Shown: piece by piece, positions 26,728 to 61,226 of the stretch
Numbering within the stretch: position 1 is the stretch's first letter
Layout of the letters: each line of letters starts with the position of its first letter
Virus record (IMG/VR): IMGVR_UViG_3300035665_003403
Location: 1 to 64,000 of that record
Direction: 5' to 3' (one strand)
DNA from: a virus
DNA length: 64,000 nt
Position numbers and translations under genes: made by a program
Notes under the pieces: generated by a model
Databases searched by the model: none
Seen by the model: only the letters and a program-made list of their open reading frames with translations
What the model was told of the DNA's origin: nothing

Positions 26728-29700
26728 TTAAATATCTATGGCTCCTAATCCTTTTGTTGTATTATTTGGTATTTTGGCTACTGGACCGACAGACCCTTGA
26801 TTTGTATTAGGGATTGGTGCTACACTATTACCATTTGCTATTGAATCCCTTACACTTTCTGGTACATTAAATTGTATGTGAATGTGACTATCATGCCCTT
26901 CTAAACAATTAACCCATTTTTTACCCTTATAATCTTTAAATGTTTTTATAATTTCAGGGTCATTAAACCAAATTCTACCAATAGCACCAGTACTAAAGGT
27001 TAACGAAGTATCAATTATGGTTTGAATTAATGTCTTAGTACCTTCAAAGCTATAATTTGGATTACCATAACTTGTTGGATTGTCAGACCCATCATTTGTT
27101 ATTGGTCTAATATCCGCTTCACATCCAGTTTGATGGCCACCATACACTGGTCTTGTTTTTCCTTCAAAGTTTGATAAGCTAGTTATTGTTATGTAATCAA
27201 TATAGCTAGTGTTTGTTGCGGTTAATCTCCATTGATTAGCTATTGCTTCCAATAACTTACCATTTTTTTCAATCATCCACTTTTCATTCAAGCCTAATTT
27301 AAATCTTAATGCATCTGATTTAGGTGAATAATTCACATATGGTGATGCTTTTCTTGAATCTTCTAATTTAAATAAATCCAATTCTGCACCTATTGGTTGT
27401 TCTAATGTTATGTTACAACTTGATTTAGTGCCATGTCCCCCCTCTGTTTCATTATTTGTTGAATCAAAATTTAGATTTAATAAATCTGGGTTGTTAGTCA
27501 ATGCTGCTAACCAACTCATATATAACTTTTTCTTATCAATCAACGGTGTTTCTACTGCTCTAAGTCTAACACCAGTAAATTGTGTTGTCATATGATTAGG
27601 TTTGATGCTATGAGTAACTTTATTTATCAAATAAGCACCTCTAAACATAGGTATATTATCCAATTGGAAATACATCATGGGTTGAATCATCGCATTGCCA
27701 AGCATTTCAACTGAAGCCTTATAAGCTCTGGTTTGATATACATTAAAAAGATTTTGACCAACAAGTGTTTGACTTGTTTGCATACCATTCTTACTTATAT
27801 CATCTTGAATTCTTAAAGATTCTTCAGTTTCAGTGAACTCTGTTTGAGATAAATTTATGTTTTTAAAAATATTCTGATTTTGACGACCAAAACCAACTTT
27901 AAATACGGATATAGGGTCACCACCGTTTGTCTCATTAATAAAATCTGATGGTATACCTTCTGGTTTGTCACAATCAAAATTAAACCCATCATTACTAAAA
28001 TTTGAACCTGTTAAATCCAATTTGTTTGATGTTTGTCCAATATACATACACACAAAAGATGGTCCACTAACAACATCATCAACAATTTCATTGAATGGGT
28101 AAGGTTTAAATACATTTACCATTTCTTCTTCATCTCTAAAGTTAATAAATGATGGTAGCGGTATAAAATCGAAATTATTCGCTGTTAACAACCTACTAAG
28201 TGTATCAGCAAATGATACGTTTTCATTTTTAAATAAAATATCTTTAAAAATCAAAGGATTTAATAAAAAGTCATTTCCAATATCAGTAAAACTTCTGTTA
28301 ATAAATCTAAAATTTTTTATTAATTCTTTGCTTTCTGGTGTCCCACATTGGAATACTATATCATCCCCGCTTTCGCTACCAGCAATCCATTTATCATATA
28401 TCGCTTTAAAATGCCTATATATGTTTAGTTTTATAATCCCTAAATCTGATGTTCCAAATATATTATTACGTTTCTCATTTTGATTTACTACAGAAGTTGA
28501 TTCGGTGTATAAACTTTGATATGTTTGTGTAAACTTATTTAAATACTTATTTACATAATCAATCTTTGCTGATATTGGTTTGTAAATATCACCATTTGTT
28601 ATTGGGGCATACCAAATATCACTAGTTGAATTTGCAATCCAAACTGTTTTATTTAATAAAGTTTTGATTGATATAACAACATTTGAATCATCTTTAATCT
28701 CTAAGAAAAACCCATTATTTCCAATGTAATTATATAATTGGTCATCTGGGGCTTGTAGGTGTAAATTATAAGCTCTTCTACTATATTGTCCATTCTTACC
28801 AAGCCCATATAATGGTGATATTGTTGAATATTTATCCGTATTGATAAGGTTATTTATTACATCACCATGATTTAATTGCCAATAAAAAGTTTTATCATCT
28901 TTTACCTTTGGGTAGGTTGGTAATATTGTTGAGCTAGCGTCTATTGGTTTTTTTAATATATTTGTTTGGCCTTGTGTAACTAATGAAATTAATAGAGCAT
29001 GTTTAGTTATTAATTTATTTGCGTCACCATCAATAATTTCTAAGTCTTTTGAAATATTGTCGAAATCATATTTAACAAAATCTAAAAATTGTAGAATAAA
29101 CTCATTAACAACTTGTGTTGGTAAATTCATTAATTCATCATCTAAATTAACATAATCACCACCCTCAATGAATGACATTGGGCTATTTGAAAAATATTTT
29201 CTGAGGTATTGGTTAGTGGCTGGTATTCCACCTTTAATTAATGGAGTATTTTTAAATTTAAAATTAATTGGGTCTACTGCACTAGTTTTTTGCCCCACGA
29301 ATTCTGAACCACTAAACTTTCTCCATAATAACCCACCAACAAATGCAGCCCATAATTTGGGTGCGTTGATTAAAGCTCCACCATTTAAAAATATATTTTT
29401 AATCTCAGGTTGTGAAAATAAACCAACATTATTGGCATGTCTTTCAATCATACCATTAAATGGTATTGTATGTAAAAATAAAAACGATTTTGCCTCTTTT
29501 GATGTTTGATTATAATATAATGAACTACCGAATAAGCTAATACAAGCTGTATCATCTTTATCGTCACTTGTTCCAACCTCAAATGAAATATATGGGTAAC
29601 TTGATGCTTGGGTTGTTAAGTGCTTTCTGGTTTGAGATAAACTACCCCTTGTTTTATAATTTGAACTTTTATATGTGTAAGCCCAATCTGATACAAAGAA

Positions 29701-32667: not shown

Positions 32668-35600
32668 TTATTTACTTAAGGTTATATTAGCTGATTGAAT
32701 TAGTAGATTACCCTTAATTAGTTTTAATGTATAATTACCGTTTGGAAAACGAGGAAACCTAGGAATAAGTATTTTATAAGAATAATTTGTTGTAGTTACA
32801 TATTCAACCATTTGTTCATTAAATAATGAACTATCAGTTAAACTAACAATTTGAAATTTACTATCTGATATTAATTTATTTATTTCATCTTGTGTTGGTA
32901 CCTTTGAAAATTTTAATGTTACCACTATAGTCCAAAATCCAAAATAATACTCAATATTTGTATCAATAATTGGATTAAACCCAACAATATTAGGTTCATC
33001 AATGGCTCCAGTTACTTCAATTGAATTACTGCTATTATTTGCTGTGGCAGTTTGGTTGATGTTACTAGTAACTGGATTAATAGGATTGAATTGAGATGTT
33101 GTTGCTTCAAATGTTTCGGCCTCCAAAGTTTCACCATTTACAAACTCATATGGTTTCTCTATACTATTAGCTTTAACTATTGTGTCACTTCTTCTATCAT
33201 AAACTTGTGTGTTAGCAAAAAAATTAAATGATAAAGCATTTTGTAATTTATTTATTGGGCCTTGTAACGATGAACCACCAATAAATTTAAAAGCAATATT
33301 TACATTAGCTATCATTGGTTGAACACCAATACCCTCTGGGTTTAAATCCCAAACTAACGGTTCATATGTTATTCCTAAATTATCAATCATTATTTTTGTG
33401 TTATAAAAATCACCAATTCTTAAAATACAAACTGGCGGTCTACCAAAAGCTAAATTATTTATACTGTTATTCTTACCAATATTTGTTTGACCTTGCCTAG
33501 TACATTGTAATAAAAAATTAAGTCTAGCATTAAATCCTTCTGGTGTTGTTGAATGAAAAGCTGGATGAAAATATTTTATTTTATTTTTTATTTCACTGTA
33601 AACAATTGGGTCTTCTAATTTTAATTTCTCAAAAAAATTACTTTCGTTATAAAATCTCTTTCTAATACCACTAGATACTGTTGTTGTATTAATACCTTTA
33701 ACCAAAACATCTGGTTGAGTTGCTTCTGTTGTAAGTTCATTATCAATTTCAAACTCAACCTTAACAAATCTACCTTTCTTAGCTTTATCAGATGATACAG
33801 GTGTGTTTTCATCACCAGAATCAAGTGTTACTCCACCATTAACAGTTGTATATCTAGTACTATCAGATAGTACATTATTAATTAACCAATTATAAACCGT
33901 ATTTGTTCTATTTTGCGCTAATGTTTCATTATTAGGTGTTGCGCCACCACCTTGTGAACTAGCATAACCAGTTATCTTTATTTTACAAGTTTTACATTTA
34001 TTAGCAATATAATCCCTCATAGCCGATAATAAACTACTATCATTCATTCCAGAATATATTGTTGAACTACCTGGTAATTGATATTGTTGTTTATTTAATC
34101 CAAAATTTGTATTATCTGGCCATGAATTACCAAACTCACCAGCAATCTGAGAATCTATTGGTGAACTTAAACCACAGCCCTCACCTGTTAATACAACCTC
34201 ACTACCATCACACATACCATCCTCATAAAATCCACTTCCACTTTTCTTTTTAGTAAAAATCTCATTTGATATGTCATTTGGAAAATAAATCTTGAAAGGT
34301 TTTGGTGGTTCTTCATTGTTGGTTACTTTTTGTTGAATTTGTGTTGTTTCTCTACTGTTAACAATGCTTTTTTCATTTGTTGTTAATTTATTAGCTAACG
34401 TTGGGTCTAATGGTAAACAACCAGCAAAAAATGAAGCCATTTCGTCATTTGAATAATCGGACAAAGCATTAACATAAGATGGGTGGTCAATTATTATCTT
34501 AAAAGCCAAATTACCCATTCTTTCAGTATTATTATAAGTGTAAACTGGTTCACCTCTACCTATAAATGGTGTGGTTTCTAAGTTTACATTACTATTCTCT
34601 GAAAATTCAATATTATAGGGTGGAAACCACATAATTTTACCAAATACACCAGTTAATAAATCACCTGGACCAGTTTCTTCTGGGGTCATGTCTTTACTTC
34701 CAGCCCATGCTAGATTTTCAATAGATAACATATAATTCTTTGCTATATCATTTCTTAATCCATTTTTATTACTAGCTTCATCTGATAAATTTTCAAAATC
34801 TGACTTATAAGGGCTAACCTTAACAAAACCATTATCATCTAATACTGAATTTTGCATATTATACCTAAAATTATTACCCATTCCATCCAAACCTCTATGA
34901 CGAATTAATTTATTAACCGTATCATATTTATCCAATGAAGTCCATGACCTACAATATGTTTCATCAGCTGATAACCCATTTGATTGTTGAAGGGCTTTAG
35001 ATGTTAATACACCACTACCCTTAGATATACCTTCACCAGATGGTGTTGTTAACTGTGATTTTATTACGGGATATTTATCACCTTTAGATGATACAATGGT
35101 TTTCATACCAATATCCTTAAATAATTTTTGAGTCTTACCTAAAAGACTATATTTGTCTTTAATTGATGCCTCAATAATACCAGGAACTGAATTTGTTAAA
35201 CCACCTTCATTTGCTCCCCATGTGAATTTAGATGGGTATGTTGATGCATCATATGTTACATCTGGTAAATCATCAAACCCATATTGTTTAATCATTTCCT
35301 CTCTATTCCAACTTAATTCTGGTATAATACTATTAGAGTTATAAGCTAACACATTTATTAATCCATTTGCATCACCAAAAGCATATGTAATTGGTGTAAA
35401 TGTTTGATTACCTCTGTTATCTGTGTAACCTGGAACATAGCCACTTCTAAATGGACTTAAATCTGGGTCATCAAACGATGTTGTACCGTTCAAATTAGCT
35501 TTCATATTGGTTAATAAGGCTAAAACCTGACCTTTACCAGTGTTTTTAATCATATTATTGGCTCTATCAATATTACCAATATTACCATTTTCACTAGCAA

Positions 35601-36609
35601 ATATAGACCCACTATCGTCTAATTTTGAATAGGGTAGTGTAAACCCTAATAATCTTTCAGTATAATCACCAACTCTTGATGATGGGTCACTACTTACAGT
35701 TATATTATAATTTGGTCTAAAACCTTCTAAGGTTCCATTACCTATTAAACTTAGTAAATTATCTGTTATATTCAAACTACCCAATGCAGTTTGTTGTACA
35801 TTAAAAGCTGCATTATTGGCTAAAGATAATGCTAATTGTTGTGCCCCAATCAAACCTAACTTAGTGTCATTAACAGCAGCACCAGAACCCAATACTCTAC
35901 CAGCTAGTGATGCTCTAAAATCAAAATTACTAACTAAACCAGCACTAGATAAACCCAAACCAGTACCATTTAATATACTACCAATTATGTTTGCAGCATT
36001 GATAGCCGATGAATCACCTCTATTTAAACCACCATATATATCTAAATATGAACCTAACTGTTGTTCAATATCACTTGGTATTAATGTAATTAAATCACCA
36101 GCATCAAACTCTTCTTGTTCTGAATTATATAAATTTTTAATTAATAAATCTTTCCTGAAATTACCATCCTTGGTTTTACCCATTAAACCATATTTTGAAA
36201 TATCAGTTGTTGAATTAAATGGGTAAGGTTCACCTACAGGTTGAGTTGAATCAGGAAATATGGGTACTTGAGGTACATTGGTTATTATTGTTAAATCAGT
36301 TGCATTTGAATCAGTATTTCTAAATTGATTTAATGCAGTTAAATTATTATAATTGATAATACCATCTACTTCTATTGGTGTATGTGAAACAATACTACCA
36401 TTACCAACCATTGTATCTAATACGGGTTCACCAATTCTTGGTTCACCATTAACTGAACTAATTAATGCAGTTAAACCATTGTTTATAATTGAAGGTGAAA
36501 TTATATTCTTAGTTAAGAGATAATCCCTGATACCATACGTTGTTGCAACACTAGTAATTGTATTTTTAGTGTTTGGTGTTGGTGAAGCAGTATTATAAAA
36601 AATTGGCAT
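32668..36609 (-). CDS. Baseplate / tube-initiator-like protein containing an OmpA-like domain
   Basis: 1313 aa; FPPYNIEFSE...FIGRGEPVYTYNNTER and PPVCILRIGDFYNTKIMIDNLGITY...QPMIANVNIAFKFIGG (tube-fold segments) flank IYFPND...IKITGYASS...NETLAQNR...RFVKV (OmpA-like). Confidence 0.65.
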   Translation of the reverse strand: MPIFYNTASPTPNTKNTITSVATTYGIRDYLLTKNIISPSIINNGLTALISSVNGEPRIGEPVLDTMVGNGSIVSHTPIEVDGIINYNNLTALNQFRNTDSNATDLTIITNVPQVPIFPDSTQPVGEPYPFNSTTDISKYGLMGKTKDGNFRKDLLIKNLYNSEQEEFDAGDLITLIPSDIEQQLGSYLDIYGGLNRGDSSAINAANIIGSILNGTGLGLSSAGLVSNFDFRASLAGRVLGSGAAVNDTKLGLIGAQQLALSLANNAAFNVQQTALGSLNITDNLLSLIGNGTLEGFRPNYNITVSSDPSSRVGDYTERLLGFTLPYSKLDDSGSIFASENGNIGNIDRANNMIKNTGKGQVLALLTNMKANLNGTTSFDDPDLSPFRSGYVPGYTDNRGNQTFTPITYAFGDANGLINVLAYNSNSIIPELSWNREEMIKQYGFDDLPDVTYDASTYPSKFTWGANEGGLTNSVPGIIEASIKDKYSLLGKTQKLFKDIGMKTIVSSKGDKYPVIKSQLTTPSGEGISKGSGVLTSKALQQSNGLSADETYCRSWTSLDKYDTVNKLIRHRGLDGMGNNFRYNMQNSVLDDNGFVKVSPYKSDFENLSDEASNKNGLRNDIAKNYMLSIENLAWAGSKDMTPEETGPGDLLTGVFGKIMWFPPYNIEFSENSNVNLETTPFIGRGEPVYTYNNTERMGNLAFKIIIDHPSYVNALSDYSNDEMASFFAGCLPLDPTLANKLTTNEKSIVNSRETTQIQQKVTNNEEPPKPFKIYFPNDISNEIFTKKKSGSGFYEDGMCDGSEVVLTGEGCGLSSPIDSQIAGEFGNSWPDNTNFGLNKQQYQLPGSSTIYSGMNDSSLLSAMRDYIANKCKTCKIKITGYASSQGGGATPNNETLAQNRTNTVYNWLINNVLSDSTRYTTVNGGVTLDSGDENTPVSSDKAKKGRFVKVEFEIDNELTTEATQPDVLVKGINTTTVSSGIRKRFYNESNFFEKLKLEDPIVYSEIKNKIKYFHPAFHSTTPEGFNARLNFLLQCTRQGQTNIGKNNSINNLAFGRPPVCILRIGDFYNTKIMIDNLGITYEPLVWDLNPEGIGVQPMIANVNIAFKFIGGSSLQGPINKLQNALSFNFFANTQVYDRRSDTIVKANSIEKPYEFVNGETLEAETFEATTSQFNPINPVTSNINQTATANNSSNSIEVTGAIDEPNIVGFNPIIDTNIEYYFGFWTIVVTLKFSKVPTQDEINKLISDSKFQIVSLTDSSLFNEQMVEYVTTTNYSYKILIPRFPRFPNGNYTLKLIKGNLLIQSANITLSK

Positions 36610-48752: not shown

Positions 48753-51596
48753 TTAAATATCATCGAATGAAGCCCCAGCGTTTGTTAGTACGAAGTCAAT
48801 CTTTATAAACTCTAGTGAACGAGTTGGTTTCAACCAAATAGTTGCATTCAATTCATTTCTATCCAAGTCTTCTGGTGCATCAGATATAGCCACTCTAAAG
48901 TCAATAAGACCTCTTTGTGTTCTAATATTATTAAGGATTGGGTTAACCATAGCTAAGAATTGGCTTCTAACTACTGAATCATTTTGTTCGAAGATAAGTC
49001 TTAAACAAGCTGATGAAATCAACTTTCTAGTTTGCAATAAAAGTCTTCTAACATTTATTCTATTAAGGGCTGTTTCATTAACTTGAAGTGTTTTATTACC
49101 CCAAATCTTAATACCTTCAGTATTGAATGTGAATATTGGGTTAACTCTAGCATCCAAAAGAGTTTCATTTTCACCAACTGTTAATTTCTTTCTTGCTTTG
49201 ATAGCATCCACGTTACCTCTTTGAAGACCAGCAACTGCGAACCAAGAATAAGATATATTATCAGTCAAAGCTATGTTTCTAACAACATCTCTTGTTGGTG
49301 GAACGTACACATAAGCATTATTTTCAGAATCCAATATTTGAATCCAAGGCCAATATGTTGCTGTGTAGCTACTATCATATAAACCATCAAGTGAATCTGC
49401 AACATCAGCTGCTGATATAACATCACCACTAGCATCTGTATCTGGTGTTGTAACGATATAAAGTGAGTCACTTCTATCATCTTGAATCATATCGATTGTA
49501 GCTTCAACCAAGTTACTATTATCGAATGTATCGATACCTGGTGTAGCCAATACGTTAATATTTATAGCTTCAGGGTTATTAAACGTCCAAATTGCTTCAA
49601 GGTAAGCATAGTAATCGGATGTGATACCTAAATCACCATTTGTAAGTGTTCTATTTGCGAATGTATCAACCAATAGACCAGCAGCACCTTTAGTTCCATT
49701 TATCGTATATGAATCTTGGTTACTTCTTCTAGTTCTATAGATATCCCATCCATCAAAACCACCATAAGGTGCCATTGTGAATTTACGAGCATAAATTTTC
49801 TCATAAGGAGTATTTAGTAATCCAGCTTCAGTTCTAAATTCAGCATCACCAGTATCAAATAAGAATATTGGTGAGTAAGTACCTCCACTTGAGTTAATTA
49901 CTATTTCAACACCATCAATAGTTGCTCCTGTAGCATCGATATCCATGTGGAATCCTTTTGTTAATCCAGTCCACATATCTAAAGTAGAACTTTCTGGTTT
50001 TCCTTTGTAATCAAAGAAGTCAGCATCAATACCGATAGTATTTGATAAACCTAAATAATATTTTCTTTTGTTTTCAAAAGCACTATAAGATGTTTTATAA
50101 GTGATTGATGGAGAAAGAACTGATGAATTACCATTTTCATTATAATCTCTAACTGGATACCCAATAAACCCAGCAGGGAATGCTTCACTTATATCATTTT
50201 CAGTATCAAATTCAACTAAAACATATAAAGATTTTGAAGCATATTCACCATCTAACGTACCTATTTTCTTACCAATATAATTATTAGATTCTGGGTCTAA
50301 TGTACATCTAGTAAAGCTTTCCAACACTTGAATATTAGCATCAGTATCATAGAATCCTCTAACAATAACATCAAACTCTTTTGTATCTGGTTTAATATTA
50401 GTGATTGATATCTTAAACTGCTCATTTGCCGCATTACCATCAGAAATTGTCCAAAACCTGAATAATCTAAGAACTTTATTACCTCTTAATTCTGATACAA
50501 CATATGGTGTAACAGCTGGAGCAAATTCCACCAAATAATCATCAAATTTATTACTATAATTAATAGGTGTTAAGTTAACACCTCTAACTTTTTCATCATC
50601 ATTGTAATTTTCGAACATTTCTGAATAGAATTCTTCAACAAACAATGCTGTTTTACCATCTTGGGCACCTCTACCTAAAACCTTAGGTAAGTAATTTCTT
50701 TTTGTTTTATCCAAAGATAATCCATAACTAAACGCACCTTGTGTTGTTGATGCTCCTGTTAATGTGAAGTCACCTAATGGATTTGTTGTAGCACCAGTAA
50801 CTGATGGGTTAAACCCAACTCCAGTAGCACCAGTAACTTCAAAATCAACCAATTGTGTTGTTTGATTAACAGTTCCTCTAGACCTTAATAAGGCTACCAA
50901 TTTATTTTCAACATCAGAATAAGATGTACCAGAATAAAAAGTTGTAACACCACTTGTTGTTCCAGTTAAATATGAACCACTTGTACCAGTAGATATAACA
51001 TTCAACGTAAATGAAACACCACTAAAGTTATCACCAGTTTTTAAATAATATGGTGATATTGATGAAGTTGTACCAGTATTTGATACACCCAAGAAAGCTA
51101 ATTGGTCTGTTAAAGTACCATTATTTATTAATGATTGAATCAATGAAACACTTGAAGAAACTACCACGTTTGTTCCACCAGTAGTTGCACTATAAGTTAT
51201 CAATGATGCAACATTTGTTGGGCCACTTGTAATACCATATGTACTATTATCCATAGCTGCATCTAATGTAATACCCCATGCTAAACCAGCGTCATAACCA
51301 GAATAACCTAATACTCTAGTTACAAATAATTGATTTGATTGACTAAGATAAGATTTAGCAATATATGCCAATTCATATTTAGGGGCACCAGTATCTTTTA
51401 TTAACGTATTATCTAAACCACCAAAAAATGATTGGAATTCATTATAATTGCTAATGAATATAGGTTGAAACGCTGGTCCAATTGTTGTTTCACCAACCAA
51501 ACCTAATGTTGTAACACCAACTTGACGGGCTACATATGTTAAGTCTCTTTCTGATGTGTAAATACCTGGACTTACGAATACTCTTGATTCTGACAT
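48753..51596 (-). CDS. Tail sheath protein (T4 gp18 family)
   Basis: 947 aa; FVSPGIYTSERDL, LGLVGETTIGPAFQP, INVLATPGI, SSYTATYWPW, WFAVAGLQRG, IWGNKTL, LNRINVRRLL, LIFEQND, KPTRSLEFI. Confidence 0.95.
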   Translation of the reverse strand: MSESRVFVSPGIYTSERDLTYVARQVGVTTLGLVGETTIGPAFQPIFISNYNEFQSFFGGLDNTLIKDTGAPKYELAYIAKSYLSQSNQLFVTRVLGYSGYDAGLAWGITLDAAMDNSTYGITSGPTNVASLITYSATTGGTNVVVSSSVSLIQSLINNGTLTDQLAFLGVSNTGTTSSISPYYLKTGDNFSGVSFTLNVISTGTSGSYLTGTTSGVTTFYSGTSYSDVENKLVALLRSRGTVNQTTQLVDFEVTGATGVGFNPSVTGATTNPLGDFTLTGASTTQGAFSYGLSLDKTKRNYLPKVLGRGAQDGKTALFVEEFYSEMFENYNDDEKVRGVNLTPINYSNKFDDYLVEFAPAVTPYVVSELRGNKVLRLFRFWTISDGNAANEQFKISITNIKPDTKEFDVIVRGFYDTDANIQVLESFTRCTLDPESNNYIGKKIGTLDGEYASKSLYVLVEFDTENDISEAFPAGFIGYPVRDYNENGNSSVLSPSITYKTSYSAFENKRKYYLGLSNTIGIDADFFDYKGKPESSTLDMWTGLTKGFHMDIDATGATIDGVEIVINSSGGTYSPIFLFDTGDAEFRTEAGLLNTPYEKIYARKFTMAPYGGFDGWDIYRTRRSNQDSYTINGTKGAAGLLVDTFANRTLTNGDLGITSDYYAYLEAIWTFNNPEAININVLATPGIDTFDNSNLVEATIDMIQDDRSDSLYIVTTPDTDASGDVISAADVADSLDGLYDSSYTATYWPWIQILDSENNAYVYVPPTRDVVRNIALTDNISYSWFAVAGLQRGNVDAIKARKKLTVGENETLLDARVNPIFTFNTEGIKIWGNKTLQVNETALNRINVRRLLLQTRKLISSACLRLIFEQNDSVVRSQFLAMVNPILNNIRTQRGLIDFRVAISDAPEDLDRNELNATIWLKPTRSLEFIKIDFVLTNAGASFDDI

Positions 51597-51693
51597 AATT
51601 TTATTTTCTTAATTTTTAATTTATTTTAAGCTCTGCTTAGTTATAAATATTAAGAAATAAATGAAAGTATTCTTTACTTTTTAAAAAATTTAA

Positions 51694-51909
51694 TTAATGA
51701 CCATAAATATAATCAATCAACTCTTGTATGGTATTAAATTTATTCCCATCAATTATCATATCAATAGTTAATACCCTGATTGAATTATCCAATTCAACAT
51801 GAGCCATATACTCATCGATTATTTCAAATCCATTTTCGTATAGTGAATATGTGAATGGTAAAAACTCACCATCCATAATTACTCCACCTTGTGTACTTTG
51901 ATTACTCAT
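51694..51909 (-). CDS. Small acidic hypothetical protein (possible fibre chaperone)
   Basis: 71-aa ORF starting 3 bp downstream of the fibre-like gene. Confidence 0.5.
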   Translation of the reverse strand: MSNQSTQGGVIMDGEFLPFTYSLYENGFEIIDEYMAHVELDNSIRVLTIDMIIDGNKFNTIQELIDYIYGH

Positions 51910-51912
51910 AAA

Positions 51913-53613
51913 TTAAATCCTTTTAACTGTCATGTAAGATAATGTTTGTGTTTCAGCTGATGATGCCATTTGACCAGCAATTAATAAATAAACATCATTA
52001 TCCCAATTGATTGCCACACTTGAAACGTTATTTAACGGTGTTGAATCACTTGTATATGTACCAGCCACAAATACAGCTTCGGTTCCATTTCCTGTTCCAT
52101 TTGTGACCTTAATTGGAAGTGTACGTTGCATATATGTTGCAGCTAAGTTTGCAGCGGAAGTTGATGTACCAATTAATGTTGCTCCAGCTAATGTTGGTGA
52201 AGTATTAAAGTAAAATCTATTTGTCGGAATAACTGTCACACCATTTTTTCTTCCTCTCATTTCCATCCTTATAACATCTCCAGCTACATATGTTCCACCT
52301 GAAATTAATACTAAACCAATTAAAGTATTTGATGCTGCTGTTGTTCCACTTTGGTCAATTCCATTTCCATAAATTACATTATTATTTCCAGATGAATAAC
52401 CAGTTATAATAACATTATTTCCATCATTACGTCTTAAAGTTGTTGTACCATTTGCAAATGTACCACCTGTTACATATATATCAGTTGATGAACTTCCTGT
52501 TGTAAATCCAGTTACGTTAAAGGTTCCACCTGTGTTATTTGTAAAAATAGCAGTTCCATTACTATAAGTACCCCCTGTAACTCTAATATCTAATGGTAAA
52601 TTTTGATATGTTGTTGCCGATATTGTTGTTGCCGAAACACCAGACGTAAATCTAGTTTCACCACTAACGGTACCACCAGATAATGGTAAGTATTCACCAC
52701 TTAATGATGATGTTCCACCAGTACTAAACCCACTTACACTGAACGTTCCACCTGTGTTATTTGTAAAAATAGCAGTTCCATTCGAATATGTACCACCAGT
52801 AACATAGACATCAAATCCTGACGAACCGCTTATTGTTGACACATCACGTAGTGAAATAGTTCCGTTATTATCTCTAACTAAAATATTACTTAATGAATTA
52901 TTTGTTGATGCTGATAAAATACTTAAAAAAGGTACAAAAAGTGTATTATTTCCATTTACCGAAATATTTTCCCCTCCAATAATAGCAGACCCATCACCAA
53001 TTAAAGATGAGTTTTTAGACAAAACAAAAGATGTGTAACCAGATACTTGACTACCATCCCCACCAATTAAACCAAAATCACTTCTATTTATATTGTTTGA
53101 ACCAAAACCAACCCCACCTATACCTCTAACAGAAACTTCATAACCAATAGCTACGGAATAATCACCAACAGCATCAGTTGATGAATCATTTAATGTTTTT
53201 AAAGAAAAATTACCACTTGAACCACTACTCCAATATGTATCGGAAATAGTACCACCTGTTGTAAACCCAGTTATTGGTATATTAACATTATCATTTCGTA
53301 TTAAAGTCAATGTTTGTCCATTCAATGTTCCACCAGTAACATAAATATCTGTTCCACTACCACCAGTTAATTGATTAACTGTGGCAAATGGATTAGCACC
53401 ACTAGGTGATGATGCATTCGTTATTGCAGCTATTTGATTTGGTGTAAGTATTGTAAAAGCACCCCATGTACTAATATCATCAGTATTCATATATGCAATT
53501 CCAGTAGAGTAATCAATATAGAATGTACCACGTTTACTAACATGGATTGGAATTCCATCTCCAGATTGAAGTAATACACTACCTATTGATATTGACCTAA
53601 CATTTGTTGCCAT
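51913..53613 (-). CDS. Fibre/appendage protein with VTGGT repeat modules
   Basis: 566 aa, G/S/T-rich; four D-x-x-VTGGT modules shared with 56649..61226; YadA-head-like segment. Confidence 0.7.
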   Translation of the reverse strand: MATNVRSISIGSVLLQSGDGIPIHVSKRGTFYIDYSTGIAYMNTDDISTWGAFTILTPNQIAAITNASSPSGANPFATVNQLTGGSGTDIYVTGGTLNGQTLTLIRNDNVNIPITGFTTGGTISDTYWSSGSSGNFSLKTLNDSSTDAVGDYSVAIGYEVSVRGIGGVGFGSNNINRSDFGLIGGDGSQVSGYTSFVLSKNSSLIGDGSAIIGGENISVNGNNTLFVPFLSILSASTNNSLSNILVRDNNGTISLRDVSTISGSSGFDVYVTGGTYSNGTAIFTNNTGGTFSVSGFSTGGTSSLSGEYLPLSGGTVSGETRFTSGVSATTISATTYQNLPLDIRVTGGTYSNGTAIFTNNTGGTFNVTGFTTGSSSTDIYVTGGTFANGTTTLRRNDGNNVIITGYSSGNNNVIYGNGIDQSGTTAASNTLIGLVLISGGTYVAGDVIRMEMRGRKNGVTVIPTNRFYFNTSPTLAGATLIGTSTSAANLAATYMQRTLPIKVTNGTGNGTEAVFVAGTYTSDSTPLNNVSSVAINWDNDVYLLIAGQMASSAETQTLSYMTVKRI

Positions 53614-53674
53614 GTATATAAATTATTTAATAACTAACCACATAAATAAAAGTTAATGTGTAATTTGTTAATTT

Positions 53675-55159
53675 TTATTCCCAATATCCATTAATAGAAA
53701 CATTACCCCTATAAACTAATAATGGTGTTTCAACCCCTATTGGTATTTTTAATATTATGTGTAAATAAGTTCCAGATTCAACCATAAGTGGTGTTATTAG
53801 TTCATTATTTATCATTGGTCTTGCCATAGTTCCAACAGATGATATTGTTGGTATGTTTTGAACACCTAAACCTAATCTTCTAGTTGTTTTTGTACCACCA
53901 GTAACAGAATCCAACTCACCAAGTGATAAATCTGTTCCACCAACACCAACAACCCACTGAAGTGTTGTTCCAGTACTACCAATTGTTGCACCAGAAGTAA
54001 AAGTATTTATATTAATGTTGTTTATAACCAGTGTTTTACCAGGTATATCAGCTGTTCCATTTGGATTTAAATAACCAAATAAAATGTAATCATTTTCACT
54101 TGAACCACTCGCTGGAATTAAAAAATTTCCACCGATAGTTGTGTAACCACCAGTTGTATTATCAAGTAATGATAATCGTGTTGGTGATAAATTATTTAAT
54201 ATATTAGCTGAAGTTGTTCCACCAGTTAAATTTGATTGACCATCTGGTAAACTTATTGATGATTGACCATTAGTTACCATCAAAGATTTAAAATCTTTAT
54301 TACTTTTAAAATCACTGAAAAGAACACCAAAATCACAAATACTAATTTTAATTGGGGATGAAACAACACCACTATTTCTATTTCTAACAAATAAGGGAAG
54401 TGAATTTGGAAGTGATGTACGATATCCAGCGGTTGTTAATGTAAAGGTTGTTGATGTAAAAAAAACAGTTGTTGCTGTTGGTGTTATCTTACCGATAATG
54501 GTATCATCAACCCAAAACTCAACATTGTTATCAATTATTGCTAATATATAGTCATTATATTCATTTATCGTTGGTGTGTGTATGTTTACAATAGTAGTTT
54601 CATAACCACTATAACTAACAACACCATTAAGGGTTCCACCACTAACTCTAAAAAAAACACCATCAGTAGGTGTTGTTGTTCCAGTTGTGGTAGCTAAACC
54701 AAATTCAATTATATTATTTGTTTGAAAAGTATTATCAAATTTGGTTTTAAAATTAACATAAATAGGGGCGTTTTCAAAAATAGGAAAGGTTCTAAATGTT
54801 TGAACCATTGAATAATCACCACTACCTACACTAGAATTCGCATTTAAGTTAAGACAACCACCAGATAATACTATTGTTTGATTAGTAGTAGTTGCTTTAT
54901 ATTTACTATTGTTTAATACATTACTTGAAAAATTATCTTGCCAAAAAGGTACTTCAACATTTTTAAGTAACCTATAATCTTGAGTAGTATGTAAAGCTCT
55001 TAATGTGGGTATACCAATAACTGAACCATCATCAACTTCAGATATAATATAATTATATCCAGATTCATTTATGATTGTTGGTAAAGTAACTTTTAAATTA
55101 TTATTTGAATCTACTTCAACTTCATTTATACTTTTACCGCCCTTTATTTTTATACTCAT
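53675..55159 (-). CDS. Beta-rich virion protein, paralogue B
   Basis: 494 aa, colinear with 55161..56600 (QDYRL, PTDGVFFR, NSLPL, IPGKTLV, PLMVE.GTYLHIILK, VSINGYWE). Confidence 0.7.
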   Translation of the reverse strand: MSIKIKGGKSINEVEVDSNNNLKVTLPTIINESGYNYIISEVDDGSVIGIPTLRALHTTQDYRLLKNVEVPFWQDNFSSNVLNNSKYKATTTNQTIVLSGGCLNLNANSSVGSGDYSMVQTFRTFPIFENAPIYVNFKTKFDNTFQTNNIIEFGLATTTGTTTPTDGVFFRVSGGTLNGVVSYSGYETTIVNIHTPTINEYNDYILAIIDNNVEFWVDDTIIGKITPTATTVFFTSTTFTLTTAGYRTSLPNSLPLFVRNRNSGVVSSPIKISICDFGVLFSDFKSNKDFKSLMVTNGQSSISLPDGQSNLTGGTTSANILNNLSPTRLSLLDNTTGGYTTIGGNFLIPASGSSENDYILFGYLNPNGTADIPGKTLVINNININTFTSGATIGSTGTTLQWVVGVGGTDLSLGELDSVTGGTKTTRRLGLGVQNIPTISSVGTMARPMINNELITPLMVESGTYLHIILKIPIGVETPLLVYRGNVSINGYWE

Positions 55160-55160
55160 G

Positions 55161-56600
55161 TTATTCCCAATATCCGTTAATTGAAACCAAACCTCTTATT
55201 ATTTGTGTTGCTGTTGCTGTTGATATAGGCATCTTAAGTATTATATGTAAATAAGTTCCAGCTTCCACCATAAGTGGTGCTGTGAATTTTGCATCAATAC
55301 TTGGACTTGCTACAGTACCAACAGTTGTTCCTGTAACCATAGATTGAATTCCCAAACCTACTCTTCTCGCTGCTCTTGTCCCAGCAGTAACAGAATCAGT
55401 TGTAAGAAGAGTAACAGCTGTTCCACCTACACCAATTGTCCATTGCAATACAGTTGCTGTAGTTGCAATAGGTACTACAGCAACATAAGTATCTATCTTA
55501 ACACCAGTTACAACAAGCGTTTTTCCAGGTATAGCAGCTGTTGCAGCTGGGTTTAAATAAGCAAAAAGAGCGTAATCAGTTTCAGCACCACCTAATGCTG
55601 CAAATTGAAACTGTCCACCAAGAGTTGCATAACCAGCTGTTGTATTAGAAAGAGAAGCAGATACTGGACCAGTAATGTTAACAATATTTGCTGTTTGAGT
55701 ACCAGCAGCAACAGCTGCTGAACCATCTGGTGTTGAAATAGATGATTGTCCGTTGGTTACCATGGTTGTACTCCATTCTTTCCCAGAATCCATATCACCA
55801 AGACTTATACCTAATTGTGCTATATTTAATTGAACAGCCGTACTTACAGCACCAGAATTATAATTTCTTAATAATAAAGGTAAAGAATTTGATTGACAAG
55901 GACTACCAAGACCAACAGGTGTTGGTAATGTCGTTAAAATAGTATCATTAACCCAAAAAGTACACTTATCTTGACCAATTGTTATGGCATAATGATATAC
56001 AATATTAGCTATTGGTACATGTATATTAGGTATAACAACTTCAGCACCGTTATTATTAATAACAGCATTTAATTGTCCACCGCTTGCTCTAAAGAAAACA
56101 CCATCAGTTGGTGCAGCAACACCTGAAGCCAACCCCAAACCAAATTCAATAACACTATTTGCTTGAAGTGGGTTTGAAAATTTAGCCTTTATATCAAAAT
56201 ATAAAGGATATGTGTTAAATAAAGAAAAACTCTTAAATGTTTGTACCCTAGCAACGTTGGTTGATGCAACGGCATTACCAGCATTTAAATTTAAAAAACC
56301 ATTTGCTAGTGTTATTGTCATTGTTGATGTAACACCAATATATTTTGCGTTATTTAATACAGCATGACTAAAAGTATCTTGCCAAAGTATTTTATCAATA
56401 CCAGTTCTAAGACGATAATCTTGAGATACATCTATTGGTCTTAATAATTTACTTCCAGTTACTTGACCATCATCTACCTCACCAACTGATATTGAATACC
56501 CAGCACCTGATAATACCACTGGTAAATTAACCTTTAAATTATTATTAGAATCAACATCAGCTAAGATATTTGAAACACCACCTTTTATAATTACACTCAT
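55161..56600 (-). CDS. Beta-rich virion protein, paralogue A
   Basis: 479 aa; tandem duplicate of 53675..55159; TATTTAT motif upstream. Confidence 0.7.
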   Translation of the reverse strand: MSVIIKGGVSNILADVDSNNNLKVNLPVVLSGAGYSISVGEVDDGQVTGSKLLRPIDVSQDYRLRTGIDKILWQDTFSHAVLNNAKYIGVTSTMTITLANGFLNLNAGNAVASTNVARVQTFKSFSLFNTYPLYFDIKAKFSNPLQANSVIEFGLGLASGVAAPTDGVFFRASGGQLNAVINNNGAEVVIPNIHVPIANIVYHYAITIGQDKCTFWVNDTILTTLPTPVGLGSPCQSNSLPLLLRNYNSGAVSTAVQLNIAQLGISLGDMDSGKEWSTTMVTNGQSSISTPDGSAAVAAGTQTANIVNITGPVSASLSNTTAGYATLGGQFQFAALGGAETDYALFAYLNPAATAAIPGKTLVVTGVKIDTYVAVVPIATTATVLQWTIGVGGTAVTLLTTDSVTAGTRAARRVGLGIQSMVTGTTVGTVASPSIDAKFTAPLMVEAGTYLHIILKMPISTATATQIIRGLVSINGYWE

Positions 56601-56648
56601 ATTCTTACATTTTTATTATAAATATCTTATATTTTTATATTATCACTT

Positions 56649-59600
56649 TTAATTCAATATTAAATATTTGATATTATACACACCCCAAGTTCCTTCAGAA
56701 CTAAAAGCATTTATGTTAAAACTAACATTATCAACGATATCACTCTTACTAAGAACCACCCCATCAATCATTGAATCCTCAATATCTGGGTGGTTTGTAG
56801 AACTAATAATTGTTAAAACAATATTGGATAAATCAGTAACGGTTGTGGAAGATACTGTTACTGTTGTGAAACTAGTTTCACCACTTATAGCTGCACCAAA
56901 ATTAACACTTGTTGTACCAGTTTCATTCACTATAACAGTAACAAAATTATTAACATCAATACCTAAATTACTAACACTATTACCACCAATAGTTTTTATG
57001 TTCAAAGCATCAACATATGTTGTATTATCGGAAGTACCTGTTAAATTACTACCCAACACAATTGTACTTACACCAATAGCTGTACTACCACTTCCATGAA
57101 CAAATGAATTTAATCCTGATGCAACAGATAAATTACCACCAGCATGTGAATTCTGACCTGATGATGTATTTAAAGCTCCTTCAACGTGACTTCCATCACC
57201 TGAAGCTATATTTCCACTTCCTTCAGCATGTGAAGCTAATCCACTTGATGTGTTTTGGTCACCCTCAGCGTGACTAACGTTACCACTTACTGTATTACTT
57301 TTACCTTCAGAAAATGAATCACTTCCAGTTACTGTATTATTTCTACCTGTTGCAAAAGAATAATTACCACTAACTATATTGGTGTTACCAAAAACACCAG
57401 CATCATTACCACTTATATCATTACCATTTCCAAATGCAGCACTAGTTAATCCACCAACAATATTATTATATCCAGCCGCAAATCCACCATCACTTGTAAC
57501 TCTATTGTTGAATCCAAATGCAGCAGCGTTGATAGCAGCAACATCAAGTGAGTTACCAGCCGCAAAACTTGTTATACCTGATACACTATTACTAAAACCA
57601 AAAGCAGCATTATAAGAATCCCTTGCCACGTTATCATGACCCATAGTGAATGAACCAATACCAATAGATTGGTTATTTAAACCAGCAGCCACAGCATAAT
57701 TACCAGTAGCATCAGTTGTTGAATCGTTTACTATCTTTACAGAATAATCACCACTTGAACCACTACTCCAATATATGTCAGAACTTGTAGTTCCTGTTGT
57801 AAATCCTGTGATAACCACATCGTTATTATCATTACGTCTTAATGTAAGCGTTTGCCCATCCAAGGTTCCACCCGTGACATAAATATCAGTTCCTGTTCCA
57901 CCAGTTGAAAACCCACTTACATTAAATGTACCACCTGTATTATTGGTAAAAGTTGCTGTACCATTTGAATAGGTACCTCCAGTCACACGTATATCTAAAG
58001 GTAATCCTAAATATGTTGATGCGCTTAAGCTACCATTAACAGTTAAGTTTCCTGTTATAGTTCCACCACTTGTACTTAACTTAGATAATATATCTGATTT
58101 AATTGTTTGAATAGTTGAACAATCACTAAGATTATCGCAAGTTAATCCTTGTTGAGTAGGTAAGCTTGAAACGACATATGAATAATGTTGTGAACCTTCT
58201 GTAAAAAATGTTATTGTATGTGATTGATTACTTGTGTTTGTTGCTCTTACAAGAGCAACTATGCTATCAGTAACAGTTATAGGAGACCCACTAAAATATG
58301 CATCACTAAGTTGCATTGATGGTGTTGGTGAATTTGTTGTTACTGGTGTTGGGTCTGTTGTAAATAATAAAGTTGATGTACCACCACTTGTTAGTTTATA
58401 AACTTCAACAAAAATATTAAAAGCTGCATTATTATTTTCCTTATATGAATGCAAATAAAATGACCAAATTCCACCAGGTATTAACGTTTTATTTAATTGG
58501 TCTGATTGAAAAGATGCTATTGTTTCTGTTGCACCAACACCAATTGTTGTTCCAGTTGATTGTTCAGATGCTGTACTACCTGTTGTGCTTAAATATCGAT
58601 TACTATTTTTTGATTGAGATATATTAAAATAAAATAATTGTCCTCCACCACCACCAGTTGAAAACCCACTTACATTAAATGTACCACCTGTATTATTGGT
58701 AAAAGTTGCTGTACCATTTGAATAGGTACCTCCAGTAACTCTAATATCTATAGGTAAACCTAGATAAGTGCTTGCACTAAACGTATTTGCTGTAAGACCA
58801 CTAGTAAATTGAGTTGGTCCCGTTACGGTACCACCAGTGAAATTAATTGCTGTACTAAAACCATTTACGGTAAAAGTACCACCTGTATTATTTGTAAATG
58901 TAGCCGTACCAGCATTATATGTACCACCAGTAACTTTTATATCTAATGGAAGATTTTGATATGTTGTTGCTGAAATTGTTACTGCTGTTAAACCACTAAC
59001 AACACCACCAGTAAATCCTGTGTAAAATCCGTTTACTGTAAATGTACCACCTGTATTATTAGTAAAAATAGTAGAACCATTTGAATAGGTACCTCCAGTA
59101 ACTTTTATATCAAGTGGTAAACCTTGATATGTTGTTGCAGATAAAATATTAGAAGAAATGGTACCGTTTGAAGTTAATCCAGTGACAGAATTAATATTTG
59201 AACTAAATGTACCCCCACTTGAATCTGTTATAGTAAATCTGTTATTATTATAAGTAAAATTAGTGATAGTTGTGTCCGTCATACCAGAACTAAAACCACT
59301 AACACTAAATGTACCACCAGTATTATTACTAAACGTAATGACACCATTATTTGGGTTATAAGTACCTCCAGTAATAGTAACATCACTTGATAATAACCCT
59401 AAGTTTGTGGTAAGTGAAACACCATCATTTCTAGTTAAAATTAAATCGTAATTAGATAAATTAAGAGTTAATCCAGTGGCAAAAACGTCAAGTGGTAAAC
59501 CAAAATAAGTTGTTGCACTCATTGTATTGGCTGTTAACCCATTTGTAAATTGTGTTGCACCAATAATGGTACCACCTGTAAAATTAGAACTACTTGTTCC

Positions 59601-61226
59601 AACAACAATATTTCCATTTGAATCAATACCTAAATTATTAACTGATGAACCACCACCAAGTGTCTTGATATTAAAACTATCAACATATGTTGTGTTATTG
59701 GTTAAACCAGTTATATTAGCACCTAACACAATTGTATTTATACCACCAGCGGTACTACCACTTCCATGTACAAACGATGTTAACCCACTAGCTATTGTAT
59801 TTGCACCACCAGCGTGTGAATAATCACCACTCGCTCTTGTATTTGACCCTTCAGCATGACTCGATAAACCATTAGCTATTGTATTATCACCTTCAGCATG
59901 TGATGTAACACCACTAGCTATTGTGTTACCACCTTCACTATGTGAATAACTACCAAAAGCTGTTGTATATGACCCCTCAGCATGTGATGCTAAACCAATT
60001 GCTGTTGTAAAAGCACCTTCAGCAAATGAATAATCACCAGAAGCAACTATATTTGTGTTATTATTTGATTTTATAGAATATAAACCAGTAGAACCAGTAA
60101 ACCCAGTAAAACCAATATTGGTTGAAAAACCACTTACGTTAAAAGTACCACCTGTGTTGTTTGTGAATATTGTAGTACCACCAGAATATGTTCCACCAGT
60201 AACATAAATATCCTGAGGTAATCCCTGATATGTTGTTGCAGATATTGATGTTCCAGTTAAACCATGAACACCTAAATCAACACCTCTAGTTGCGCCACTA
60301 TATGGTATGAAATTACTTGTATCAACTTGAGCAGAAGGAAAACTTAAACGTGAGTTAGTATTATCATCAATTCTAACTGTAACATTACCAGTTGAAGTAA
60401 CCATCTTAGCATATATCTTAACAACTAATCTATCAGTTGAATTAAGATATATATTATTAGATGAAACACTAAATGTTAAATTTATTTGTAATAACGCATT
60501 TAAATTAGATTGATTAGATGTGTCAGAAGATAATAAAATAGTTTCATTACCAATTAAATCTAATTTAGATAAAGTTGCAAATGTAAAATAATATGCACTA
60601 CCAGAAACTTTTTGAATTTCAAAATGTAAATCAATTTCACCAGATGGTATAACCGTTAAATTAGGATTATAAATATCAGTGACAAATTGACCAACGATTG
60701 TAGAAGCTGTGGTTATTGTAGTTGTTATCAAAGCAACTGGTCCAACAATATATTCGTTTAAACTAACCAATTTATTATAACCAGCAATATCAGTAGCCCC
60801 ACTTACAAGCATATAAGTTGATATTCCGTTAGCTGAATTAGTGAACCCAGTTATAGGTATACTAACATTATCATTTCTTACTAACGTAAGTGTTTGACCA
60901 GAATAAGTTCCACCTGTAACATATATGTCCGTAGATGATGTACCAGTACTAAATCCAGATACATTAAATGTACCACCTGTATTGTTTGTAAATATAGCTG
61001 TACCATTACTATAAGTACCACCTGTAACAAACACATCAGTGAAAGTTTGTCCAGTACTAAACCCAGTTACATTAAATGTTCCACCTGTGTTGTTTGTAAA
61101 TATAGCTGTACCATTACTGTAAGTTCCTCCTGTAACATATATATCAACACCACCAGTATCACCAGAAATCAATGGTTGAATAATATATGTTTGATTAATA
61201 TTTGATGTATTGTTATTATTAATCAT
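56649..61226 (-). CDS. Long fibre/adhesin-like protein with VTGGT modules and two YadA-head-like (SHAEG) repeat tracts
   Basis: 1525 aa; 8 x D.xxTGGTY....T..F[TS]NNTGGTF.V.GF, 2-3 x ...TLTL.RND variants, and two tracts of 14-aa ASG..SHAEG..T repeats. Confidence 0.8.
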   Translation of the reverse strand: MINNNNTSNINQTYIIQPLISGDTGGVDIYVTGGTYSNGTAIFTNNTGGTFNVTGFSTGQTFTDVFVTGGTYSNGTAIFTNNTGGTFNVSGFSTGTSSTDIYVTGGTYSGQTLTLVRNDNVSIPITGFTNSANGISTYMLVSGATDIAGYNKLVSLNEYIVGPVALITTTITTASTIVGQFVTDIYNPNLTVIPSGEIDLHFEIQKVSGSAYYFTFATLSKLDLIGNETILLSSDTSNQSNLNALLQINLTFSVSSNNIYLNSTDRLVVKIYAKMVTSTGNVTVRIDDNTNSRLSFPSAQVDTSNFIPYSGATRGVDLGVHGLTGTSISATTYQGLPQDIYVTGGTYSGGTTIFTNNTGGTFNVSGFSTNIGFTGFTGSTGLYSIKSNNNTNIVASGDYSFAEGAFTTAIGLASHAEGSYTTAFGSYSHSEGGNTIASGVTSHAEGDNTIANGLSSHAEGSNTRASGDYSHAGGANTIASGLTSFVHGSGSTAGGINTIVLGANITGLTNNTTYVDSFNIKTLGGGSSVNNLGIDSNGNIVVGTSSSNFTGGTIIGATQFTNGLTANTMSATTYFGLPLDVFATGLTLNLSNYDLILTRNDGVSLTTNLGLLSSDVTITGGTYNPNNGVITFSNNTGGTFSVSGFSSGMTDTTITNFTYNNNRFTITDSSGGTFSSNINSVTGLTSNGTISSNILSATTYQGLPLDIKVTGGTYSNGSTIFTNNTGGTFTVNGFYTGFTGGVVSGLTAVTISATTYQNLPLDIKVTGGTYNAGTATFTNNTGGTFTVNGFSTAINFTGGTVTGPTQFTSGLTANTFSASTYLGLPIDIRVTGGTYSNGTATFTNNTGGTFNVSGFSTGGGGGQLFYFNISQSKNSNRYLSTTGSTASEQSTGTTIGVGATETIASFQSDQLNKTLIPGGIWSFYLHSYKENNNAAFNIFVEVYKLTSGGTSTLLFTTDPTPVTTNSPTPSMQLSDAYFSGSPITVTDSIVALVRATNTSNQSHTITFFTEGSQHYSYVVSSLPTQQGLTCDNLSDCSTIQTIKSDILSKLSTSGGTITGNLTVNGSLSASTYLGLPLDIRVTGGTYSNGTATFTNNTGGTFNVSGFSTGGTGTDIYVTGGTLDGQTLTLRRNDNNDVVITGFTTGTTSSDIYWSSGSSGDYSVKIVNDSTTDATGNYAVAAGLNNQSIGIGSFTMGHDNVARDSYNAAFGFSNSVSGITSFAAGNSLDVAAINAAAFGFNNRVTSDGGFAAGYNNIVGGLTSAAFGNGNDISGNDAGVFGNTNIVSGNYSFATGRNNTVTGSDSFSEGKSNTVSGNVSHAEGDQNTSSGLASHAEGSGNIASGDGSHVEGALNTSSGQNSHAGGNLSVASGLNSFVHGSGSTAIGVSTIVLGSNLTGTSDNTTYVDALNIKTIGGNSVSNLGIDVNNFVTVIVNETGTTSVNFGAAISGETSFTTVTVSSTTVTDLSNIVLTIISSTNHPDIEDSMIDGVVLSKSDIVDNVSFNINAFSSEGTWGVYNIKYLILN
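57898..58736. repeat. Exact 86-bp direct repeats (57898-57983 and 58651-58736)
   Basis: Base-by-base identical: CCACCAGTTGAAAACCCACTTACATTAAATGTACCACCTG...GAATAGGTACCTCCAGT. Confidence 0.9.

Follow-up and report, generated by a model that had tools for sequence, protein, structure and literature searches.

Why would one and the same four-residue pattern, Ser or Thr followed by Gly, any residue and again Ser or Thr ([ST]-G-x-[ST]), recur in phage tail proteins that are otherwise unrelated? The question is raised by the first 64 kb (64,000 nucleotides; the whole stretch of DNA analysed here, referred to as the window) of IMG/VR record IMGVR_UViG_3300035665_003403, a single virus contig of 148,824 bp with approximately 29% G+C from an uncultured lake jumbo phage, a distant T4-like myophage. 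An earlier reading of the window (the original prediction) had taken the pattern for an enzyme recognition site on surface-exposed virion proteins, e.g. for O-glycosylation by phage-encoded glycosyltransferases. We found that the motif is enriched well beyond chance in the tail sheath, in fibre-like proteins and in proteins of the baseplate gene block, and that a large glycosyltransferase cluster adjoins the most consistently motif-dense protein family. In our judgement the chances are about even that the motif serves as an O-glycosylation sequon through which the phage covers its tail periphery with a glycan coat of its own making.

The motif is enriched in sheath, fibre-like and baseplate-block proteins

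Counts are given as [ST]G.[ST] sites per [ST]G dipeptides, and expectations come from whole-protein shuffles. In the contractile tail sheath, 14 of the 21 dipeptides are motif sites (2.7 expected), 11 of them within residues 124–283, and the two fibre-like proteins of the window carry 22/31 (566 aa; 5.7 expected) and 62/86 (1525 aa; 16.9 expected). An excess was also found in the 882-aa protein (7/12; 2.1 expected), the 1171-aa protein (10/27; 3.3 expected) and the 494-aa protein (7 sites; 2.4 expected). The hub has 1/12, the tape-measure-like protein 0/17, the gp6-like wedge protein and the small open reading frames (ORFs) downstream of the sheath no site at all, the portal a single one, and six replication proteins (2595 aa) 1/18, the lone site lying in the Walker A sequence GFSNTGKST. 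All counts behind the original prediction were thereby reproduced exactly, and its statement that parts expected to be buried essentially lack the motif agrees with the figures for hub, tape-measure-like protein and wedge. Proteins that it had not listed are enriched as well, namely the 253-aa protein in the window and, outside it, the 576-aa protein, a third fibre-like protein (Table 1) and the product of 102413–103813. Taken together, the nine richest proteins of the contig hold 163 sites versus 43 expected, and the other 141 proteins 28 versus 40.

The excess persists when shuffling is restricted to windows of 20 or 40 residues, and it is therefore not a matter of local S/T/G richness. When 11 motifs of the same composition but other order or spacing were counted in the nine richest proteins, most were close to expectation. 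Several of them were also raised in the repeat-rich fibres, and G.[ST][ST] was raised in the sheath; among the motifs compared, [ST]G.[ST] alone was enriched in all nine proteins. A large part of the count in the three fibre-like proteins comes from a shared module of approximately 36 residues. With similar contexts collapsed, 54 of 88 non-redundant [ST]G in the fibres still have S/T at +3, and in 45 of the 88 this residue is Thr (background 0.14). The enrichment is borne out by the local shuffles and the repeat collapse alike. Six mutually dissimilar proteins (the sheath, the 1171-, 882-, 494- and 576-aa proteins and the product of 102413–103813) were also pooled, and here Thr occupies +3 in 52 of 115 [ST]G (background 0.10). 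These six show no detectable similarity among themselves or to the fibres; the motif thus occurs in at least seven proteins for which no mutual homology is detectable, which upholds the claim that one 4-mer recurs in proteins without detectable homology.

A refined, sequence-specific motif

The phage belongs to a clade represented by 42 IMG/VR contigs with sheaths 41–70% identical to the sheath of the window, and related DNA polymerases were found on approximately 80 contigs. Neither the 576-aa protein nor the product of gene 94850 has a homologue among GenBank phages; the clade is uncultured. For a closer definition of the motif, 51 enriched proteins of six clade genomes (approximately 1000 non-redundant contexts) were pooled and compared with 768 non-enriched proteins of the same genomes. 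A 2370-aa protein of one relative (G005, L062; 204879–211991), which has 307 [ST]G.[ST] versus 133 expected, was kept out of the pooled statistics to avoid bias.

In the pooled set, Thr is enriched 3.4-fold at +3 and Ser, at 1.1-fold, is not. At -1 the residue is hydrophobic in 52% of motif sites as against 33% of non-motif sites, with charged residues depleted, and Pro is depleted at +2. The probability of Thr at +3 after [ST]-X is 0.43 if X is Gly and 0.39 if X is Ala, compared with 0.04–0.16 for the other 18 residues; after Z-G it is 0.37 for Ser and 0.49 for Thr at Z, and at most 0.17 for all others. All these probabilities are flat (0.05–0.09) in the 768 non-enriched proteins. The Ala signal is an independent confirmation, because Ala had no part in the rule by which the proteins were selected. 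A more accurate notation is therefore (hydrophobic)-[ST]-[GA]-x-T, in which Ala can replace Gly at +1. Of the form first proposed, the sequence specificity stood, but the residue selected at +3 is Thr and not Ser, and at +1 Gly and Ala are equally suitable. In its refined form, [ST][GA].T, the motif occurs 163 times versus 33.5 expected in ten contig proteins, approximately five times chance, with 11 such sites in the sheath, and 21 times versus 29 expected in the remaining contig proteins. Judged from these sequences, it behaves like an enzyme recognition tag.

Other phages were used as controls. In T4, the sheath has 0/10, gp34 1/18 and gp12 1/6 [ST]G.[ST] per [ST]G. For the refined motif we counted 26 versus 22.8 expected in T4 outer proteins, 14 versus 12.7 in Microcystis phage Mel-JY01, 30 versus 19 in phi92 and, a mild excess, 56 versus 36.5 in Flavobacterium phage immuto. 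The motif is not a generic fibre or sheath feature or a generic beta-turn, and a comparable excess is not seen in T4, phi92 or Mel-JY01. A cause at the DNA level was considered and rejected. Across the whole contig the codon before Gly ends in T in 65–78% of cases versus 37–40% elsewhere and rarely in A. A T-ending codon before Gly was found in 77% versus 40% elsewhere, but non-motif [ST]G reach 78%, and four-fold codons before any Gly share the bias, which amounts to a general avoidance of A before GG across codon boundaries. The pattern had also been said to differ from the Bacteroidota-type sequon D-[ST]-[AILMTV]. Indeed, this sequon is never significantly enriched in the nine motif-rich proteins: most of them do not exceed the expectation, z ranges from -1.4 to +1.5, and in eight of the nine it is negative or near zero. 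The N-x-[ST] triplet of cytoplasmic N-glycosylation (HMW1C type) gave z values of 1.3–2.5 for the sheath and for both fibres of the window, and values of approximately zero or below elsewhere, a mild enrichment overall (z about 2); each copy of the 36-residue fibre module contains three such triplets.

Motif-bearing proteins probably lie at the tail periphery

The sheath core matches PF17482 above cut-off, and in Foldseek searches its best match was T4 gp18, followed by other sheaths. The motif sites of the sheath are N-terminal to this conserved core, which Pfam and PHROG place at residues 637–944. Extra sheath domains of this kind face outward in T4 gp18 and other sheaths. Among relatives, a group of contigs (L030–L033) has a 1636-aa sheath (ORF at approximately 8774–13684 of L030) with some 690 additional residues in the N-terminal region and 31 sites.

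The repeat module is common to both window fibres and to the third fibre-like protein. The 566-aa protein and the module have no Pfam, PHROG or PDB sequence match, and we take the protein to be a probable fibre. The 1525-aa protein matches phrog_25468 (4e-25) and, weakly, PF05658, and the 1171-aa protein has weak matches to Lcl_C, PA14 and a minor-tail PHROG. For the 494-aa protein, which forms a tandem pair with its 479-aa paralogue (53675–56600) whose relatives are viral hypothetical proteins only, an Atlas search returned viral hypothetical clusters and a weak GH16/ConA-like fold lead, and nothing else. The 576-aa protein has Foldseek matches to PilC and CBM40. All 15 of its 15 orthologues carry 6–23 sites versus 0.5–2.1 expected, which makes this family the most consistently motif-dense of all. 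Searches of PDB and NCBIfam with the fibre, the 494-aa protein and the conserved glycosyltransferases described below gave nothing informative. From gene positions and predicted folds, the motif would mark the inserted region of the sheath, the fibres and outer baseplate proteins, that is, the tail periphery, where the sites are presumably exposed.

A recognition site or a structural element

The most serious alternative is that the motif is a lineage-specific structural element, a strand-turn or strand-cap, that was spread by repeat amplification and domain shuffling, is unmodified and has no connection with the glycosyltransferases. We regard this as unlikely, albeit the best of the alternatives. 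It would account for the large share of the fibre count that stems from the 36-residue repeat, and the preference for beta-branched Thr over Ser, the hydrophobic -1 residue, the small residue at +1 and the depletion of Pro at +2 also suit beta-strand or turn structure. In AlphaFold2 (AF2) models several sites lie at hairpin turns or strand ends, some of them in textbook hairpin turns (e.g. residues 416–419 of the 576-aa protein). Furthermore, 6–9 of 11 sheath sites are common to close relatives, i.e. their positions are fairly conserved, and conservation is somewhat higher at motif positions than at S/T/G elsewhere. These features speak for structure, and most of them count against a recognition site.

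However, proteins of the same fold do without the motif. The 494-aa protein has seven sites and its paralogue, at 48% identity, has one; all seven are non-motif in the other copy. In one relative (G007), orthologues that are 42–71% identical have the motif at background levels (0–5 [ST]G.[ST]): its orthologue of the 882-aa protein (42% identical) has 0 sites versus 7, and its sheath has 5 versus 14 here and 12 in a 71%-identical sheath. These comparisons indicate that the motif is dispensable for the fold within the clade. More distant sheaths (44–48% identity) keep approximately seven sites, but only 0–2 positions are in common with the present sheath; the number of sites is thus kept and their positions are not. 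Lineage-specific insertions were already loaded with motifs on arrival, and the occurrence in at least seven proteins without detectable mutual homology, as well as the lack of a comparable strength in unrelated myophages, is likewise difficult to reconcile with a structural element.

The predicted secondary structure points in the same direction. In the AF2 sheath model, where residues 105–345 have a predicted local distance difference test (pLDDT) score of 80–92, sites 192, 211 and 215 are in the middle of long strands, 203, 222 and 280 at the ends of strands and 139, 174 and 255 in loops, and contexts in the model of the 576-aa protein are similarly mixed. The one consistent context that a generic turn would give was not found. 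A generic beta-turn had been named at the outset as one explanation that would overturn the idea of a sequon; same-fold relatives without the motif and mixed contexts argue against such a turn, whereas the sites in hairpin turns are in its favour.

Lastly, we looked at what replaces Gly at aligned sites. With both flanks of the motif preserved, Ala is the substitute in 17 of 26 cases. Where the flanks are lost, Gly gives way to the turn-formers Asn, Ser or Asp, and to Ala in no more than 2 of 65. The motif thus varies as a block of four positions, which would be expected if it were a recognition unit and not a turn.

A glycosyltransferase cluster adjoins the most motif-dense family

The window holds no modifying enzyme, as had been noted before, and the original prediction pointed to the rest of the genome for glycosyltransferase genes. 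The remainder of the contig indeed contains a block of + strand genes at 74.5–101 kb with five GT2, two GT11, one GT17 and one DUF5672 protein (at 81.5–97.3 kb, all above Pfam cut-offs) and three methyltransferases, one FkbM and two Methyltransf_24. The block is divergently adjacent to the gene of the 576-aa protein family. Comparison with seven large relative contigs revealed a conserved core of six genes (76587, 81549, 82615, 94850, 96493 and 97292), of which the four glycosyltransferases (76587, 81549, 94850 and 96493) are present in all relatives whose contigs cover the region. In between, the GT11/GT17/DUF5672/methyltransferase block at 83430–92904 is largely peculiar to this phage, relatives with the conserved glycosyltransferases on either side mostly lacking it, and it looks like a hypervariable glycan-elaboration cassette. 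The last core gene, at 97292, may encode a phage sigma factor co-located with the cluster, judging by its weak match to sigma-70 region 2. A T4-type late promoter, TATAAATA, was noticed before the glycosyltransferase genes and set aside as uninformative in an AT-rich genome.

These genes suggest the following mechanism. The motif would be the recognition site (sequon) for a phage-encoded protein-modifying enzyme: a conserved cytoplasmic glycosyltransferase would prime O-glycosylation of the motif Thr/Ser in the inserted region of the sheath, the fibres and the outer baseplate proteins. The sugar would afterwards be lengthened by strain-variable transferases, here the GT2, GT11 fucosyltransferase-like, GT17 and DUF5672 proteins together with FkbM and the other methyltransferases, to give a strain-specific glycan coat around the tail periphery. 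Conserved candidate primers and variable extenders would fit a diversifying glycan. Modification, its glycan nature, the reader enzyme, the acceptor residue and solvent exposure are all things that we infer, and it is co-occurrence and adjacency that suggest the link between motif and enzymes. That the whole clade has a dedicated protein O-glycosylation system, with a sequon read by the conserved core and sugars extended by variable enzymes, is a more tentative proposal, which we would put somewhat short of an even chance.

A number of results weigh against glycosylation of the motif by these enzymes. The major capsid protein is not enriched (3 versus 1.5–1.7 expected), and with only one site in the portal the idea of a virion-wide coat was not sustained. 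We found no clade member that covers the region but has no conserved enzyme genes: all covering contigs carry them, so that motif and enzymes show no clean presence/absence contrast. G007 had been considered as a relative with neither motif nor glycosyltransferases; however, the cluster lies just beyond the end of its contig. A second contig, G011, which overlaps it and has an identical polymerase, does have the conserved enzyme genes, and its orthologue of the 576-aa protein has 14 [ST]G.[ST] versus 1.7 expected. In the G007/G011 phage the motif is thus confined to two proteins despite the enzymes, and the sheath and baseplate motif is lost. Phi92 has four glycosyltransferases, including a distant homologue of the 76587 product, and no motif enrichment; therefore glycosyltransferase clusters do not imply the motif, and phi92 was dropped as a cultured model. 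There is no GT60 match on the contig, and the conserved enzymes are unlike any protein O-glycosyltransferase characterised so far, their PDB and NCBIfam matches being weak or generic. Moreover, the glycosyltransferases could act on DNA or the host envelope; the contig is approximately 44% of the genome. We also asked whether the motif is depleted in proteins that are not to be modified. We counted 33 sites versus 43 expected in the remaining contig proteins (P = 0.065), 6 versus 13 in large inner virion proteins (P = 0.02) and 3 versus 7 in proteins encoded in the glycosyltransferase region (P = 0.08), and complete relatives show no depletion in non-target proteins. As this was not significant overall, the argument was dropped. 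In summary, the part of the original prediction that concerns O-glycosylation by phage enzymes is partly supported: the enzymes adjoin a motif-dense family, but a contrast between phages with and without the enzymes was not obtained.

Another explanation would retain the recognition site and change its chemistry. The motif could be a sequon for phosphorylation, methylation, acylation or ADP-ribosylation, or be read by a host enzyme, and the glycosyltransferases would then serve DNA hypermodification or envelope remodelling. The motif behaves like a recognition unit without any chemical tie to sugars, and approximately 56% of the genome is unseen. Phage glycosyltransferases that act on DNA are known (Pyle et al., 2024, as cited in PMC12619734; see also bioRxiv 10.1101/2023.12.21.572611), and a host enzyme is reported to methylate tail proteins of a phage (PMC13445384). 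Against this, the glycosyltransferase cluster is the only large set of modifying enzymes found on the contig and adjoins the most motif-dense family, and GT11, GT17 and sugar-type methyltransferases would point to a complex oligosaccharide rather than to a DNA mono- or disaccharide. The thymidylate-synthase homologue of the contig looks like an ordinary ThyA, and Tet/JBP proteins were not found in a search that had no positive control. We consider a non-glycan sequon, or one read by a host enzyme, rather improbable. It is very improbable that the motif is an unmodified surface feature, e.g. a ligand- or water-binding element for adhesion to host or environmental polymers, since a four-residue element in mixed contexts with turning-over positions is hardly a defined binding site and the literature searches brought up no binding motif of such a form. 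Its restriction to proteins of the sheath, the fibre-like group and the baseplate block, two of them with leads to lectin-like folds, would nevertheless be in keeping with such a role.

Gene setting

Complete relatives of the phage have genomes of 288–322 kb. In the window, the gene for the large subunit of ribonucleotide reductase (15748–18129; phrog_84, 3e-178) is followed by replication genes, and together these separate the baseplate genes (up to 15273) from the hub and tape-measure-like genes (from 26728). One relative (G008; L124–L133, 193 kb) has 56 ORFs of at least 150 aa under table 11 with many fragmented matches, which suggests many frameshifts in the record or another genetic code.

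Table 1. Features of the contig referred to in the text (positions in nucleotides of the contig; motif sites are [ST]G.[ST] unless stated).
Feature	Position	Strand	Remarks
Cys-rich protein, 1171 aa	17–3532	-	In tail/baseplate gene block; position in the particle presumed
882-aa protein	3529–6177	-	In tail/baseplate gene block
253-aa protein	7088–7849	-	In baseplate gene block; refined motif 4 versus 0.3 expected
gp6-like wedge protein	13456–15273		0 motif sites
Hub	26728–32352		
Tape-measure-like protein	32668–36609		
Contractile tail sheath, 947 aa	48753–51596	-	phrog_23 (9e-58); PF17482 and PF04984 on residues 637–944
Fibre-like protein, 566 aa	51913–53613	-	Mostly repeat module of ~36 residues
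494-aa protein	53675–55159	-	7 motif sites
479-aa motif-poor paralogue of the 494-aa protein	55161–56600	-	48% identity, blastp E = 1e-159
Large fibre-like protein, 1525 aa	56649–61226	-	Repeat module and YadA-head-like SHAEG repeats
576-aa protein (p576)	70232–71962		Predicted ConA/LamG-like lectin jelly roll
Third fibre-like protein	71965–74223		Repeat module
Conserved core gene	76587	+	No family match itself; phi92 homologue annotated as GT-B fold
Conserved core gene	81549	+	GT2_5
Conserved core gene	82615	+	
Conserved core gene	94850	+	Weak GT-B match
Conserved core gene	96493	+	GT2
Conserved core gene, 237 aa	97292–98005	+	At end of cluster; weak sigma-70 region 2 (Pfam E = 0.008; NCBIfam E = 0.001–0.005)
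466-aa protein near head genes	102413–103813		Motif-enriched
Major capsid protein, prohead protease, portal	109.8–120.6 kb		Outside the window

Implications

If the motif is indeed an O-glycosylation sequon, tailed phages outside the actinophages would cover the structures used for adsorption with glycans of their own making, at sites that are genetically addressable. No earlier glycosylation system of tailed phages would be defined by a sequon, and this one would belong to a clade of uncultured freshwater and marine jumbo myophages. Sheath, fibres and baseplate would carry a heritable, rapidly evolving coat. Sequons gained or lost would tune its density, and in turn provide a readout of selection on the coat. 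Such a coat would bear on host recognition, on evasion of host defences, proteases and grazers, and on the stability of the particle. The interpretation of cryo-EM maps and of metaproteomes from environmental phages would change too, as peptides containing the motif would go undetected. A short portable tag with cytoplasmic enzymes might be useful in glycoengineering, and the motif offers a simple sequence test for such systems in metagenomes.

Comparison with known systems

In the literature searched we found no description of the motif in phages. The pond glycofibrils seen by CryoSeek (bioRxiv 10.1101/2025.09.30.679562) are eukaryotic and have another motif, G-S-x-x-S, and were not taken as evidence. 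General O-glycosylation in Bacteroidota resembles the proposed system in having a short Ser/Thr-centred sequon that is spread over many unrelated proteins. Its substrates are exported proteins and its site is the periplasm, while the assembly of phage particles is cytoplasmic, and it also differs in that the Bacteroidota sequon is not enriched in the motif-rich proteins of this phage. The chlorovirus PBCV-1 decorates its own structural protein by means of virus-encoded, strain-variable glycosyltransferases and methyltransferases. Its sites are non-canonical, short and Thr-rich, but the system is eukaryotic, N-linked and located on the capsid.

Virion O-glycosylation by phage-encoded enzymes is known from mycobacteriophages (Freeman et al., 2023, Cell Host Microbe, as summarised in PMC12619734). 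As in these phages (Che8 type), glycosyltransferase genes are encoded by the phage itself, here together with methyltransferases, and the virion proteins would presumably be cytoplasmic substrates. According to that account, mycobacteriophage glycans are attached at the C-termini of capsid and tail-tube subunits. In the present phage the candidate sites are not C-terminal but internal, are defined by a four-residue motif and lie on the sheath, fibres and outer baseplate proteins, with the capsid unmarked; the enzyme set is far larger, and the modification is a putative one. By analogy, mycobacteriophage virion glycosylation is the nearest known system, from which the putative system described here differs in type of site, target proteins and scale.

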